Origin: Conexivisphaerales archaeon
Lineage (GTDB): Archaea > Thermoproteota > Nitrososphaeria > Conexivisphaerales > DTJL01
Reading direction: 5' to 3'
NCBI GenBank assembly: GCA_049509455.1
Contig: JBEKZX010000036.1
Location: 1-14,451 of the forward strand
Length of the DNA stretch: 14,451 nt
Made by a program: the position numbers and the translations under genes. The notes beneath the pieces were generated by a model. It saw only the letters and a program-made list of their open reading frames with translations. It had not been told where the DNA came from and ran no database searches. Positions 1,154 through 5,597 of the stretch are shown piece by piece (positions within the stretch are counted from its first letter, which is position 1; the number at the start of each line of letters is the position of its first letter).

Positions 1154-1164
1154 CCTTTTTATCA
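1148..1164 (+). promoter_or_regulatory. Putative BRE/TATA of the tRNA-Tyr gene; the T-run may also terminate the hsp20 transcript
   Basis: GATAAC followed by TTTTTATC (1156-1163). Normal archaeal spacing would put the transcription start near 1184-1187, about 10-13 nt before mature position 1. Confidence 0.5.
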
Positions 1165-1205
1165 GGAGCTCAAGGAGCTTCAAACTGGTCCCGCGTCCCG
1201 CGGTA

Positions 1206-1233
1206 AGGACCTCCTTTCAGGGGGTTCCCGCAG
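1206..1233 (+). other. tRNA intron 1 (28 nt) at position 9/10 with a relaxed BHB motif
   Basis: Central helix GCGG(1200-1203)/CCGC(1228-1231); 3-nt bulges TA^A and AG^G; 8-bp intron helix 1207-1214/1220-1227 with two G-U pairs. There is no outer helix. Cutting after the second bulge nucleotide restores exactly U8-A9-G10. Confidence 0.85.
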
Positions 1234-1255
1234 GCTCAGCCTGGTAGAGCTTCCG

Positions 1256-1286
1256 ACATGGGCGGTTGCGACCGTCCGTGGGAGAT
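1256..1286 (+). other. tRNA intron 2 (31 nt) at position 30/31 with a full BHB motif
   Basis: Outer helix AG(1248-1249)/CT(1288-1289); central helix CTTC(1250-1253)/GGAG(1281-1284); bulges CG^A and AT^G; 10-bp intron helix 1257-1266/1271-1280 closing a TGCG loop. Confidence 0.9.
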
Positions 1287-1293
1287 GCTGTAG

Positions 1294-1339
1294 TGGTTGG
1301 CCCTGGCTGACCCGTCCAGCCTGCCAGGCATACACGGAA
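1294..1339 (+). other. tRNA intron 3 (46 nt) at the canonical position 37/38
   Basis: Central helix CTGT(1288-1291)/ACGG(1334-1337); bulges AG^T and AA^A. The outer helix is the anticodon stem. An internal hairpin GGCTG/CAGCC is present. Confidence 0.9.
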
Positions 1340-1418
1340 ACCGGAGTGTCGCAGGCTCAAATCCTGCCCGCGGGACCAACATAGCTCCCTAGGCTGGACC
1401 ACGATTCGAGAGCCGAGG

Positions 1419-2333
1419 TCAAAGCGCGGCCAGGACGTGGGCGGCGGCCTTGTCGGCGACCATCGCCAGGGACAGTATGAGGAGGTACAGCGCCGTGAAC
1501 TTGTAAGCCCTCCATGCCATGGCGGCCGAGTTCGTCACCATCAGGAGGTAGTCACTGAAGAGCAGGAGAGAGCCAAGGATGACCGCCACGCCAAGGTAGA
1601 CGTAGCCGAAGTAGCCGAAGGCGTAGAGGGAAAGAGAAGAAGCGACTAGAGCGACGCTGTTGATCATTATGGCCTTGGAGGTAGCCATGACGCCGGCGAC
1701 GACGGGCAGCATCGGAACGCCGGCCCCCTCGTACTGCTCGACGCCCTTTATGGCGAGCGCCCAGAAGTGGCTGGGGGTCCAGAGGAAGATGGCCATCCCG
1801 ATGAGGAAGGCTTCAAGGTTCACCGGGGCGACCGCTGTCCAGCCGGCCAAGAAGGCGAAGCTGCCGGAAGCGCCTCCGATGACTACGTTCCACGACGTCC
1901 TCCTCTTCAGAAGATAAGTGTATACAAAGGCATAGGTCACAAGCCCGGCCGCCACCATGGCCCCGCTCAATTGCGAAAGGCCGAAGAGCGCGACGCAGAC
2001 GCCGAGAGTTCCCATGACAATGCCAACGCTTAGGGCTTCCCTTGGGAGGACCTTCTTCGAGGGGATCGGGCGCGTGCTTGTCCGTTTCATCATCGCGTCG
2101 ATGTCCCTGTCGAAGTAGTTGTTCAAGGCGTTGGCCCCCGCCGTGGAGAGGAAGCCCGCCGCTGTCAAGAGGAGGATTCTGGGGGCGTCCACGGAGAGCC
2201 CTGACGCGAGAACGAGGCCGATGATGGATTCGGCCCACAGGAGGCTGAAGATCCTCAGCTTGAAGAGCGTGATGAAGGCTCTGAGCCTCTCCGATCCGGA
2301 GACCCTAGCGGCGACCGGGGCCTTAAGGGTCAA
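1419..2333 (-). CDS. cyoE: Protoheme IX farnesyltransferase (heme o synthase), UbiA family
   Basis: Motifs NNYFDRDIDAMMKRTSTRPIPS, YTYLLKRRT, GGASGSF and LWTPSHFWALAI. The probable start is TTG at 2333, overlapping the upstream TGA (TTGA), rather than the ORF-track start at 2369. Confidence 0.95.
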   Translation of the reverse strand: MTLKAPVAARVSGSERLRAFITLFKLRIFSLLWAESIIGLVLASGLSVDAPRILLLTAAGFLSTAGANALNNYFDRDIDAMMKRTSTRPIPSKKVLPREALSVGIVMGTLGVCVALFGLSQLSGAMVAAGLVTYAFVYTYLLKRRTSWNVVIGGASGSFAFLAGWTAVAPVNLEAFLIGMAIFLWTPSHFWALAIKGVEQYEGAGVPMLPVVAGVMATSKAIMINSVALVASSLSLYAFGYFGYVYLGVAVILGSLLLFSDYLLMVTNSAAMAWRAYKFTALYLLILSLAMVADKAAAHVLAAL

Positions 2334-2743
2334 TGGCCCGCCACCACGGTGATGCTGCCGACCATCCACAGATGATAGATGCAGTAGTAGCTGAACGTGC
2401 CCGTGGTGTTGAAGGTCACCGTGACCGACTGGCCGGCCAGGATGTCACCGGTGTTGAAGGATTTGTCCAACGCGGTGGCGGTGTGGACCGCAACGTCGTT
2501 GTTGTAGAACATGACGGTGCTGTTGACGCCCAGGACCAGCGTGATGTTCGCGGGCGAGAAACCCATGGATTGGTTGAAATACGCCCCGCTCACCATCACG
2601 ACGAGTACGCTGCCCGCCGGGGGCTTCGGGATGTTGCTGGCTGAGTAGAGGTGCGACGAGCCGATGTAGTCGAGGCCTCCGCCGATGCCGGCGGCCACCA
2701 GGAGGATTAGCGCGACGCCTGCTAGGGTACGGTTGACCTTCAA
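2330..2743 (-). CDS. Membrane-anchored type-1 blue copper protein (cupredoxin, plastocyanin-like), 137 aa
   Basis: N-terminal hydrophobic helix; FSPANITL strand; His in NDVAVHT; C-x2-H-x2-M loop (YCIYHLWM). The TTG start at 2743 overlaps the subunit I TGA stop. Confidence 0.88.
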   Translation of the reverse strand: MKVNRTLAGVALILLVAAGIGGGLDYIGSSHLYSASNIPKPPAGSVLVVMVSGAYFNQSMGFSPANITLVLGVNSTVMFYNNDVAVHTATALDKSFNTGDILAGQSVTVTFNTTGTFSYYCIYHLWMVGSITVVAGH

Positions 2744-4314
2744 ACGACGGGCACACCTCCAGCGGTCTCCTTCTGGGCGCGAATCACCTTGTAAAGGTTG
2801 TAGAGGAACGGAAGCTGGCCGATGCCAAGCACCAACGCGAAGACGAGCGCCAGGTCGAGCCATATGGCGTAAGTCGTCGTAAAGCCCAGCGTTTGAAGGA
2901 CCACGTTCGCCTCCCTCCTAGGCGCGCCCAGAAGGCCGAGCACCAAGAAACAGGTCGACATGCCGAAGCTGCCGATGAACGAAGCCCAAAAGTGTATCCT
3001 GCCCAGCACCTTACTGGGGAAATCGCGGTGAATGAGCAGCGGGAGGAGGAAGTAGAGGATGCCGAAGGAGGCCATCATGACCCCTGCCAGAGCGTTGAAA
3101 TGGAAGTGGGCCACAATGACGTAAGTGTTGTGCTGGTAGACGTCGAAGGCGACGGTGCCCGCCTCCTCCCCTATGAAACCGCCGATTATCCAGCCCGCGA
3201 TGCTGGCCACGATGAACATGGAGGGCGTGCTCCACCTGAACTTGCTCCTCCACATTACGGCGACCAGGGTGAAGACCGTCAGCCCAGACGCAAAGCCAAT
3301 CAGGTAGCTCATCGATTGCGAGAACAGGTTGATCCAGACCGGCTGGTTGACGTCCATGTACAGGTGATGGCTATAGACTCCTACACCGGAGACCAGGAGC
3401 AGCGGCCACGGAACTCTGGCCCAACGCTCGCTGGGAAGGGCTCTGTTGGCGAAGGTAGTCATGAGGTAGTAGTAGAGACCGATTACCATGAAGAAGGCGA
3501 AGTATACGATCGGGTGACCGTACAGCCAGAACAAGTTCTTGGCTAGGAGGGCGTTGACGTCGAAGGGAGGGGCGGTGATCTGGTAGAGGCCCAATATCTG
3601 TTCGATCATCACAGAAGGAGTGGAGAAGAGGAGGACGATGGTGGCGACCACGACACCGATGACGGGGATGGGGAGGGGTTCGAGCTTGTTCCAAGTTGAC
3701 GTAGGCATGTACGCGTCAAGGCCGATGCTCTGAATGAACCGGTAGAGGCTCGACTGAGTGTAGAACCTCTGTTGACTTGAACCGGGCATCTTGGTGGAGT
3801 AAACCGTCCTGAGCGCGACGTAGGCGAAGACTATGAATCCAACCTCGCTGCCTAGCGCCGACGCCAAGAATAGGGCCGTGGAGGCCGCTGTCCACGCGTT
3901 AGCCGAGTAGAACGGCAGGGGGTAGAGGTAGTACCAGCCAGCGGCGAACCCCATGCCGATGCTGACCAGCATCGCGTAGAAGCTGAACATGGTGATGACG
4001 CTAGCGGCTAGCGCCATCCTGTAGCTGTAGAGGGGCCTCTTCAGGAAATAGGCCAGGAGGAAGAAGGAGATACCGTAGGCGAACGGGAACTGCCAGCCTA
4101 CGAACATCCCCAAGCCGTGCGCCGTAAGAAGCTGGTAGAAGACCTGGGCTGTAGTGGCTGGGACGCCAGCCTGGTCCGTGCGCATCAACAATGCGAAGGA
4201 GCCAGCGATGATGAAGTTGATGAAGGAGATAACGATCAGGGCGAATGAGAGCCGGCGGATGTTGGCGGGAACCTCCCACTTGGTCTCCACCGACACCGCC
4301 GTCTCCTCGCCCAA
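2740..4314 (-). CDS. Heme-copper oxygen reductase subunit I, B-family (ba3-like)
   Basis: All six His ligands are present (TAHG, GHPIVY, SHH, AHFH) and the cross-link Tyr is retained. HPIVY replaces the A-family HPEVY. The helix VIII pattern ASGLTVFT matches the B-family K-channel analogue. Confidence 0.92.
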   Translation of the reverse strand: MGEETAVSVETKWEVPANIRRLSFALIVISFINFIIAGSFALLMRTDQAGVPATTAQVFYQLLTAHGLGMFVGWQFPFAYGISFFLLAYFLKRPLYSYRMALAASVITMFSFYAMLVSIGMGFAAGWYYLYPLPFYSANAWTAASTALFLASALGSEVGFIVFAYVALRTVYSTKMPGSSQQRFYTQSSLYRFIQSIGLDAYMPTSTWNKLEPLPIPVIGVVVATIVLLFSTPSVMIEQILGLYQITAPPFDVNALLAKNLFWLYGHPIVYFAFFMVIGLYYYLMTTFANRALPSERWARVPWPLLLVSGVGVYSHHLYMDVNQPVWINLFSQSMSYLIGFASGLTVFTLVAVMWRSKFRWSTPSMFIVASIAGWIIGGFIGEEAGTVAFDVYQHNTYVIVAHFHFNALAGVMMASFGILYFLLPLLIHRDFPSKVLGRIHFWASFIGSFGMSTCFLVLGLLGAPRREANVVLQTLGFTTTYAIWLDLALVFALVLGIGQLPFLYNLYKVIRAQKETAGGVPVV

Positions 4315-4872
4315 CTAGCCGCTCACCACTGTGAACGTCGTGACCATAAAGGGGTGTCCAAAGCCACAGTACTCGAGGCATCTTATCGTGTATACGCCAG
4401 GCTCCGTAAATGTGTATATGAAGTCGTTATCGTAGCCCGGCATCACCTGTTCCTGCATCAACAGAGTGCCGTTGGGGCTGTAGACCCCGAACCCATGGGT
4501 GACGTCCTTGGAGGTGACTATCCATTCGACGGGAGTGTTCGCTATGACCTTAGTGGAGTTGAGGGTCCAGCTGAACTGCTTAGCCACGACGGTGATCGCC
4601 TGGGTGGGCTGCAGCCTCCCGAAGGACAGCACGGGGATAAAGGGGAGGGTGAACGCCCAGAACCCTATGAATACGACGGCGATGGCCAGCACGTAGAGGC
4701 CCTTCTTGTGGTACCAGCCAGGCACCTTGTCGGCGTTCCTAGGATGGCGGGTGGTGTAGATGGCCCAGGCCATGAAGAACACTGCGATGCCTACGAGGAC
4801 CACGAGAAGACCTGCGAGGAAGTTGATTCCGAAGCCTACGTCTCCGGCCAGAGTGAAAACTGGTAGGGACAT
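4315..4872 (-). CDS. Heme-copper oxidase subunit II with a CuA centre, 185 aa
   Basis: Two N-terminal hydrophobic helices, DVTHGF, and an intact CuA motif CLEYCGFGHPFM. The probable start is ATG at 4872 (MSLPVF); the longer ORF runs through an AT-rich promoter region. Confidence 0.92.
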   Translation of the reverse strand: MSLPVFTLAGDVGFGINFLAGLLVVLVGIAVFFMAWAIYTTRHPRNADKVPGWYHKKGLYVLAIAVVFIGFWAFTLPFIPVLSFGRLQPTQAITVVAKQFSWTLNSTKVIANTPVEWIVTSKDVTHGFGVYSPNGTLLMQEQVMPGYDNDFIYTFTEPGVYTIRCLEYCGFGHPFMVTTFTVVSG

Positions 4873-4997
4873 TCGACCATCCGCTGAGTCTCGAGGCGAT
4901 TCATGGCTAATAAATGTGTTTGTCAGTATCCGTAAAAATTCTGATATTTGCGTTTCCTTCGTAAATCTTTTAAACAGTATTTCAATCATTAGCCATA
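4873..4997. promoter_or_regulatory. Divergent promoter region between the oxidase operon and the second cupredoxin
   Basis: The region is AT-rich. On the plus strand, CGTAAAT (BRE-like) precedes TTTTAAA at 4968-4974, 23 nt before GTG 4998 (leaderless spacing). On the minus strand, TTTATTA lies at 4914-4908. Confidence 0.6.
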
Positions 4998-5597
4998 GTG
5001 ACGGTATTGTCTAGCCAAACTACACCAATCGGTGTCTGGGTGGCGATAGGGATTTCTCTTGCGGCCCTCGTCTTTGCGATGGCGGTCTACACCGAAGTAG
5101 CGACCACGAACACCGTGACCTTACCTGCGAACATAAACCAACAGCTCACCAATATCCAGGCTTTGCTCGGCTCGTTGCCTGCCGTGAACCAGACCCCGAC
5201 GACGAGGAACGTGCTAGTCGAATGGGGGATAGACTATGCTGGGCTGGATAGCTTCTCCCCGACCTTGATCGTGGTCAACCAGGGAGACACCGTTGCTATC
5301 ACCTTCATCAGCAACGACACCGGTGACGGCCACACGTTCACTATCGACACGGGGCCCTACGACTTCCAAATCAACATTACGGCGCCAGGCCTGATGAACA
5401 CGCTCAACGGCCAGGAATTCACGACACCACCCACCAACAACTCGCCCGGCGTGAATGTGACGGGGTCCGCGGGAAGCCTGACGGGCACTGGAAGCTTCGT
5501 GGCGAGCGCGGCGGGCGTCTACGAGTACGTTTGTGTTTACCACCGCTATATGATAGGATATTTAGTGGTGCTTCCCAACTCGGCTTACTCGCCTTAG
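4998..5597 (+). CDS. Membrane-anchored type-1 blue copper protein (sulfocyanin/rusticyanin-like cupredoxin)
   Basis: N-terminal transmembrane helix; FSPTLIVVNQGDTV; His in DGHTFTI; C-x2-H-x2-M loop (YVCVYHRYM). Confidence 0.85.
   Translation: MTVLSSQTTPIGVWVAIGISLAALVFAMAVYTEVATTNTVTLPANINQQLTNIQALLGSLPAVNQTPTTRNVLVEWGIDYAGLDSFSPTLIVVNQGDTVAITFISNDTGDGHTFTIDTGPYDFQINITAPGLMNTLNGQEFTTPPTNNSPGVNVTGSAGSLTGTGSFVASAAGVYEYVCVYHRYMIGYLVVLPNSAYSP

Follow-up and report, generated by a model that had tools for sequence, protein, structure and literature searches.

On the current view, an intron in an archaeal tRNA gene survives only at a site where the tRNA around it is able to form the splice motif. 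Sites adjacent to the acceptor stem should be nearly closed to introns, because motif and stem need the same bases. Two kinds of precursor pairing are familiar: in ordinary pre-tRNAs, pairing between leader and trailer extends the intact acceptor stem and stacks on it, and in the processing stems of archaeal pre-rRNA the leader and trailer of 16S or 23S rRNA pair, with a bulge-helix-bulge (BHB) inside the helix. Non-canonical BHB introns have been described in archaeal tRNA genes (Thermoproteales and others), at positions such as 20/21 to 59/60 and 3/4 (PMC4090602, PMC4033280). The split tRNAs of Nanoarchaeum equitans and Caldivirga carry complementary leaders and trailers and are trans-spliced (PMC4090602, PMC3218864); leader and trailer belong to two transcripts, themselves form the splice motif and are cut off by the endonuclease. 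Pairing in cis between a leader and the 3' strand of the acceptor is undescribed in these three sources, in PMC3293823 and PMC12397907, and in the 2026 Asgard intron preprint. Our literature search returned no publication on a leader standing in for an acceptor strand; an earlier mention in Marck and Grosjean 2003 or Sugahara 2007 is conceivable. Here we describe a tRNA-Tyr gene of a Conexivisphaerales archaeon whose leader is likely to act in cis as a stand-in acceptor strand, enabling the splicing of an intron placed directly behind the acceptor stem.

The window analyzed is the whole 14,451-nt stretch of contig JBEKZX010000036.1 (assembly GCA_049509455.1). An intergenic gap, with flanking ORFs ending at 1153 and 1419, holds a tRNA-Tyr(GTA) gene with three introns and tRNA position 1 at 1197. 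Because of these introns, neither ARAGORN nor Rfam found a tRNA in the window; we set the exon and intron borders manually and against intron-less orthologues. Joined, the exons make up a normal tRNA-Tyr(GTA) of 77 nt, encoded CCA included. The gene is adjoined by a run of minus-strand ORFs (1419-5597), the first of which spans 1419-2369 and encodes 316 aa. The features of the locus are as follows.

1156 to 1163, forward strand: putative TATA-like promoter box (TTTTTATC), the best box upstream of the gene.
1186, forward strand: leader base T opposite A76, the tenth complementary base, probably incidental.
1187 to 1195, forward strand: anti-3' leader (candidate stand-in acceptor strand), GGT and then a copy of tRNA positions 1-6, complementary to tRNA positions 67-75.
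1196, forward strand: unpaired spacer (base T) between the leader element and tRNA position 1.
1197 to 1205, forward strand: exon 1, tRNA positions 1-9; G4-G7 (1200-1203) are one strand of the intron 1 central helix.
1206 to 1233, forward strand: intron 1 (9/10), 28 nt, assigned by geometry, with boundaries fixed by intron-less orthologues.
1234 to 1255, forward strand: exon 2, tRNA positions 10-30, D arm and 5' anticodon stem, assigned by exon joining.
1256 to 1286, forward strand: intron 2 (30/31), 31 nt, assigned by exon joining and intron-less orthologues.
1287 to 1293, forward strand: exon 3, a 7-nt micro-exon, positions 31-37 with the anticodon GTA, assigned by exon joining.
1294 to 1339, forward strand: intron 3 (canonical 37/38), 46 nt, assigned by exon joining.
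1340 to 1378, forward strand: exon 4, positions 38-76, with the 3' acceptor strand at 1368-1374, discriminator A at 1375 and CCA at 1376-1378.

The whole anticodon thus sits on the micro-exon at 1287-1293, between the 30/31 and 37/38 introns.

The first-pass annotation of this DNA had reported a perfect 10-nt complement between the leader and the 3' end of the tRNA. The leader stretch TGGTCCCGCG (1186-1195) is indeed the exact reverse complement of CGCGGGACCA (1369-1378, tRNA positions 67-76) at 10/10 bases, and is followed by the spacer T1196 and then the tRNA. Nine of these pairs are kept in the genus and one is not: the base equivalent to 1186 is C in four other genomes of the genus, and the pairing of T1186 with A76 is probably incidental. 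The conserved leader duplex predicted for the window's genus is accordingly 9 bp (1187-1195 with the target 1369-1377 in exon 4). The same region can be read alternatively as a perfect tandem 7-mer (1189-1195 and 1196-1202). Pairing of the leader with the 5' strand was also considered; it is possible for Tyr only, whose acceptor is near-palindromic, and fails in the other tRNA families described below.

This arrangement shares traits with each of the known systems and departs from all of them. Like ordinary leader-trailer pairing, it engages the discriminator and the bases that follow, but it contains an inserted copy of the 5' strand, through which the leader competes against the acceptor stem and takes its place. 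In the acceptor-extending register (-1/-2 with 73/74) just two pairs are possible, whereas the register with 9 bp takes up positions 67-72 and is incompatible with an acceptor stem, so we rejected an ordinary acceptor-extending leader. As in split tRNAs, extra sequence outside the mature tRNA would pair for splicing and then be discarded. Unlike in split tRNAs, however, the leader lies in cis, pairs with mature sequence and is predicted to be removed by RNase P; a leader of the split-tRNA type was rejected on finding a single gene with one promoter and a perfect 9-bp helix free of bulges. With the pre-rRNA stems the locus has in common a 5' leader whose partner is the 3' end of its own transcript in an endonuclease-dependent maturation, yet here the helix is bulge-free and would only free another strand for the motif.

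That motif belongs to intron 1. Its central helix joins G4-G7 (1200-1203) to CCGC at 1228-1231 with 4/4 Watson-Crick pairs, flanked by two 3-nt bulges (U8-A9-A1206 and A1232-G1233-G10) and an 8-bp inner helix h' (1207-1214 with 1220-1227); the outer exon helix h cannot form, which makes the intron HBh' in type. Joining the exons restores the intron-less orthologue sequence across positions 1-13. The central helix is present in the minimum free energy (MFE) fold with the leader, and this fold draws the 3' bulge differently from the exact 3-nt form. By its geometry, intron 1 appears to be an ordinary non-canonical BHB intron, for which cleavage is predicted. It resembles the described members of that group in its 4-bp central helix, two 3-nt bulges, inner helix and the presence of two EndA paralogues, and multi-intron genes that include 30/31 and 37/38 introns, as tRNA-Tyr does here, are typical of them. 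It differs in its site, where motif and acceptor stem are in competition, and in being accompanied by a dedicated leader. The genome of the window (G000) encodes two EndA paralogues, at G000:C130:25169-25402 and G000:C108:22430-22684, and a full-length archaeal RNase P RNA (186 bits), a gene content that fits a heteromeric endonuclease of broad specificity and removal of the leader by RNase P.

We surveyed leader complementarity across all tRNA genes of G000 (2.05 Mb, 58% GC, 140 contigs). Merging Infernal, ARAGORN and our own scan for T arms and acceptors gave 43 candidates, of which 41 were credible; this catalogue is probably a few genes short of the full set. ARAGORN reported 25 genes (false calls included) and Infernal 33, against an actual number of at least 41. 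ARAGORN false positives (G000:C72:7066-7228, G000:C69:11589-11693 and a C80 call with a 1333-nt 'intron') were dropped. Each 25-nt leader was scored by its best duplex with positions 66-76 of its own tRNA. The scores were bimodal: 5/41 genes had a leader duplex of 8-10 bp ending 1-4 nt before +1, and all others reached 6 pairs or fewer. Among the latter, the 6-bp match of G000:C1:113739 is an Infernal boundary artefact in which the matching stretch is the real 5' acceptor strand, and that of G000:C75:950 lies 10 nt from +1, at chance level. The tRNA-Arg-like genes at G000:C75:950-1037 and G000:C132:4681-4756 have an A3.C70 acceptor mismatch (6/7 pairs).

A first intron at 8/9-10/11, with a central helix on acceptor bases 3-8, is present in precisely these five leader genes and in no others (5/5 genes with a 5'-proximal intron vs 0/36 others):

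tRNA-Tyr: leader is the window element, pairing with 67-76; first intron 9/10; central helix 4-7.
tRNA-Gln(CTG): leader GGTAGCCC, pairing with 68-75; first intron 9/10 or 10/11; central helix 5-8.
tRNA-Met: leader TGCCGGGA, pairing with 66-73; first intron 8/9; central helix 3-6.
tRNA-Thr(GGT): leader GAGCCCCGG, pairing with 66-74; first intron 8/9 or 9/10; central helix 3-6 with one mismatch.
tRNA-Asn: leader GCGCTGCCG, pairing with 66-74 with one G.U; first intron 8/9; central helix 3-6 with one mismatch.

The tRNA-Asn gene has the same three-intron layout as surrounds 1287-1293 in Tyr (8/9, 30/31 and 37/38), and tRNA-Met combines introns at 8/9 and 30/31 with one in the variable region.

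The five leaders differ in sequence, each family having its own, and the five 5'-proximal introns are mutually unrelated. Introns of G000 at 13/14, in the D-loop, at 24/25, 30/31 and 37/38 and in the variable region come without a leader; the nearest control (G000:C60:86-204) has an intron at 13/14 with its central helix on U8-U11, just outside the acceptor stem, and no leader. When the 25-nt leaders of the 41 genes were shuffled, 0.019 genes were expected to show at least 8 Watson-Crick pairs ending at most 5 nt from +1, compared with four observed; a fifth gene has 9 pairs, one of them G.U. In a swap control, every leader fitted its own 3' end only.

Promoter spacing suggests that these elements are transcribed. 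In ordinary G000 tRNA genes with a good TATA-like box (n = 31), box end and +1 are separated by 27 nt in the median (quartiles 26-29, minimum 23). The five leader genes have 30-36 nt between box end and +1 and only 20-23 nt between box end and element; for Tyr the values are 33 nt and, to the conserved element, 23 nt. Since genes spaced at 23 nt must start at or before +1, transcription should begin within ~24 nt of the box end; for the window this puts the start at 1187 or earlier. That position agrees with the first-pass proposal that the transcript starts at the leader. The box-to-element spacing of 20-23 nt, compared with the median of 27 nt, further indicates that the element is an insert at the 5' end of the transcript. 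Its place at the predicted start site, and the 5-7 bp that the copy can form with the 3' strand, would also be expected if the upstream copy were the true 5' acceptor strand, as an alternative exon 1, or a promoter or initiator element acting at the DNA level. We regard this explanation as the most remote of those considered. The copies are partial (5-7 nt), lack positions 8-9 behind them and have no splice motif to the D arm, which rules out a true exon 1, and a sequence that differs between tRNA families and tracks its own acceptor is unlike a protein-binding element.

A leader that serves intron 1 should alter the fold of the precursor. We computed RNAfold partition functions (37 C) for the five leader genes with and without their leaders. 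With the leader, the probability that the acceptor stem (1-7) forms was 0.00 in 5/5 genes, compared with 0.86-1.00 without it. The central-helix bases were paired into the intron with probabilities of 1.00 (Tyr), 0.90 (Gln), 0.54 (Met), 0.74 (Thr) and 0.25 (Asn) in the presence of the leader, and 0.00-0.13 in its absence. The acceptor is therefore predicted to open in all five genes and the splice helix to form in 4/5, in line with the switch between the two that the first-pass annotation had anticipated. The weaker cases are Thr and Asn, whose central helices each contain one mismatch, with Asn pairing at 0.25. The trend persists at 70 C, with the exception of Asn, where central-helix pairing stays near zero. 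Removal of intron 1 or of all introns did not reverse the switch in this two-dimensional energy model: the leader duplex was still favored (-43.0 vs -39.6 kcal/mol with the acceptor forced, a preference of ~3.4 kcal/mol), with a probability of ~0.01 for the acceptor stem. The earlier suggestion that branch migration could restore the acceptor stem is thus at odds with the model, and the return to the cloverleaf is unexplained by secondary structure alone. Release of the leader would need tertiary folding, RNase P binding or another factor.

To trace leader and intron through related genomes, we searched 40 of them with each of the five leader genes and parsed the orthologues. In ~114 orthologue rows (including a few spurious duplicates) leader and 5'-proximal intron always occurred together, without exception. 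These genomes are non-independent, and counting gene-level events gives ~8 independent co-occurrences in all, not the 39 instances scored below, with no counter-example. As the first-pass annotation had expected for tRNA-Tyr, the leader is present in all relatives that have the 9/10 intron and in none of the intron-less ones: both features occur in each of the nine f1 genomes (ten loci), and both are missing in the other families recovered. The Tyr element is unchanged in five genomes of genus g1, and other f1 genera keep a form of 8-9 nt. Near-identical Tyr loci also occur in MAGs labelled Nitrososphaerota or Nitrososphaeria, and the Tyr pattern gave no further cases in 400 other sampled Thermoproteota genomes.

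The other tRNA families follow the same rule. Both features occur in all eight f1 orthologues recovered for Gln (none was recovered from G001, which is 59% complete) and in all eight recovered for Thr (none from G002); in one Thr leader a C-to-T change keeps a G.U pair. For Met, intron and leader are restricted to genus g1, with neither in three other f1 genera, and this pattern points to a separate gain. For Asn, f1 has both features, G001 (of the window's genus) excepted: its Asn gene (L250) has neither the 8/9 intron nor the leader, although its 30/31 and 37/38 introns are retained along with a homologous upstream region. Compared with L245-L248, L250 lacks an 11-nt leader insert as well as the 8/9 intron. 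From the sequences, this state would need either two separate precise deletions or a conversion event.

Substitutions within families preserve the pairing. In Gln of G006, the acceptor is followed by A-T-C and the leader reads GAT, whereas the others have A-C-C and GGT; the leader pair with position 74 is thus A-T vs G-C elsewhere, a compensatory change. In Asn, the acceptor pair 5:68 is U:A in G006 and G007 and C:G in g1, and the leader base opposite 68 is T and C, respectively; G005 has a mismatch at that leader base. A leader complementary to positions ~68-74 of its own tRNA and ending 0-6 nt before +1 was found in 39 instances from six tRNA families, for which we scored pairing by column. 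Columns 68-73 are paired in 97-100% of instances, with two or three Watson-Crick pair types in 5/6 columns; column 70 has C:G and U.G only. Column 73, the discriminator, lies outside the copied 5' strand and is paired in 100% (U:A, A:U and C:G). Covariation of the leader with the 3' strand, sought by the first-pass annotation, thus extends across the five other tRNA families as well as within families. Its proposal that a leader UGGU masks the terminal ACCA from RNase P could hold in part at best: column 74 is paired in 90% of instances, so that masking would reach C74 at most, and sometimes C75 (64%), and the pairing of A76 is not conserved (49%).

The perfect tandem repeats, a 7-mer in the window (1189-1202) and an 8-mer in the Gln gene of G005, raise the question of whether the leader is a functionless scar of tandem duplication or intron insertion. 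We consider this very unlikely. The Tyr spacer between TATA box and element (21-23 nt) has no sequence shared across family f1, and the base equivalent to 1196 is T, A or absent with both flanks constant; the element stays constant while the adjoining spacer diverges fully. The complement reaches positions 73-75, outside the copied strand, and later substitutions are compensatory or give G.U pairs. The element recurs in six tRNA families and two phyla and was lost jointly with the intron in Asn of G001. Moreover, both copies are upstream of the intron and adjacent to each other, whereas a target-site duplication would place one on either side of it. We conclude that the complementarity is genuine, under selection and specific to introns invading the acceptor stem, and we are nearly certain that leader and 3' strand pair.

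The second phylum is Hadarchaeota. Among the matches listed for a 17-base Tyr pattern in named genomes, most were chance hits in GC-rich bacteria and four archaeal ones were usable. Two Hadarchaeia MAGs have a Tyr leader designed as in the window and an intron of unrelated sequence; overall, 4/66 Hadarchaeota genomes have the Tyr design, with T, G, C or A as the spacer base and both flanks constant. In Hadarchaeum G041 we parsed 30 tRNA genes. The two with an anti-3' leader are the only two with 5'-proximal introns (2/2 vs 0/28): Tyr, with an intron at 9/10, and a further gene, with an intron at 8/9. Both introns are unrelated in sequence to that of the window. The second gene was parsed as follows.

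L306 (G041): leader TGGCGCCGG, pairing with 68-76; acceptor starting GCCGG; intron 8/9; central helix C3-G6.

Many intron-less tRNA genes of Hadarchaeota also carry GGT directly against +1. In G041 (e.g. L284, L287, L294, L308), (T)GGT abuts +1 opposite an encoded ACC(A), and the same holds for the intron-less Gln genes of families f2 and f5 (L163, L164, L176, L177), opposite ACC(A). Judged by sequence, transcripts with a (T)GGT leader could have a fully paired, extended acceptor end. Pairing between leaders and 3' ends may have a general role on this evidence, and the leader might serve end processing or protection, either keeping nucleases off the displaced 3' strand and the CCA or placing splicing before RNase P and RNase Z. 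In 90-100% of instances the discriminator and C74 lie within the duplex, whose predicted persistence after splicing would block RNase P. On its own, such a role is nevertheless unlikely to be the explanation, although it has better prospects than a scar or an alternative exon: the copy of the 5' strand accompanies solely introns at 8/9-10/11 and never those at 13/14, in the D-loop, at 30/31 or at 37/38, and the predicted folding switch directly concerns the splice helix. End processing and the enabling of splicing are compatible and may coexist.

We therefore return to the stand-in acceptor strand, for which we propose the following course. The first 9-10 nt of the tRNA-Tyr primary transcript, GGU and a copy of positions 1-6, would pair with the 3' acceptor strand, the discriminator and C74-C75 (9 bp), outcompeting the 7-bp acceptor stem. 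The true 5' strand would be left free, so that G4-G7 could pair with CCGC at the 3' end of intron 1 and build the BHB for endonuclease cleavage at 9/10. Once intron 1 is removed, the true 5' strand would displace the copy, and RNase P would remove the leader. A role of the leader in enabling splicing is probable, and thermodynamic prediction suggests that splicing may depend on it. The splice motif may also form co-transcriptionally, before the 3' strand exists, in which case the leader would be helpful rather than required.

As to its origin, the element likely arose when the 5' acceptor strand was duplicated in tandem downstream of a short leader already able to pair with ACC. In Gln of G005 (L159, around 1507-1522) the 5' acceptor strand is repeated as a perfect tandem 8-mer behind TGGT, and this repeat, together with the 7-mer of the window, would point to an origin in one step. 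The (T)GGT that abuts +1 in other genes may represent the ancestral state before the duplication. More broadly, we give even chances to the generalization that stand-in leaders are a general, undescribed class of archaeal cis RNA elements, required for introns that invade the acceptor, imposing splicing before RNase P, and born by tandem duplications that admit introns at 8/9-10/11.

Standard annotation of the window's lineage will miss multi-intron tRNAs, and the leader signature could help to find hidden tRNA genes and to fix their true 5' ends. With a stand-in leader, pre-tRNAs would gain a new functional part beyond the mature sequence, and their processing steps would be expected to follow an obligatory order. 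Such a leader would explain how introns are tolerated beside the acceptor stem. If the generalization to a class holds, both the tRNA body and the flanking transcript would limit the positions at which archaeal tRNAs can carry introns.
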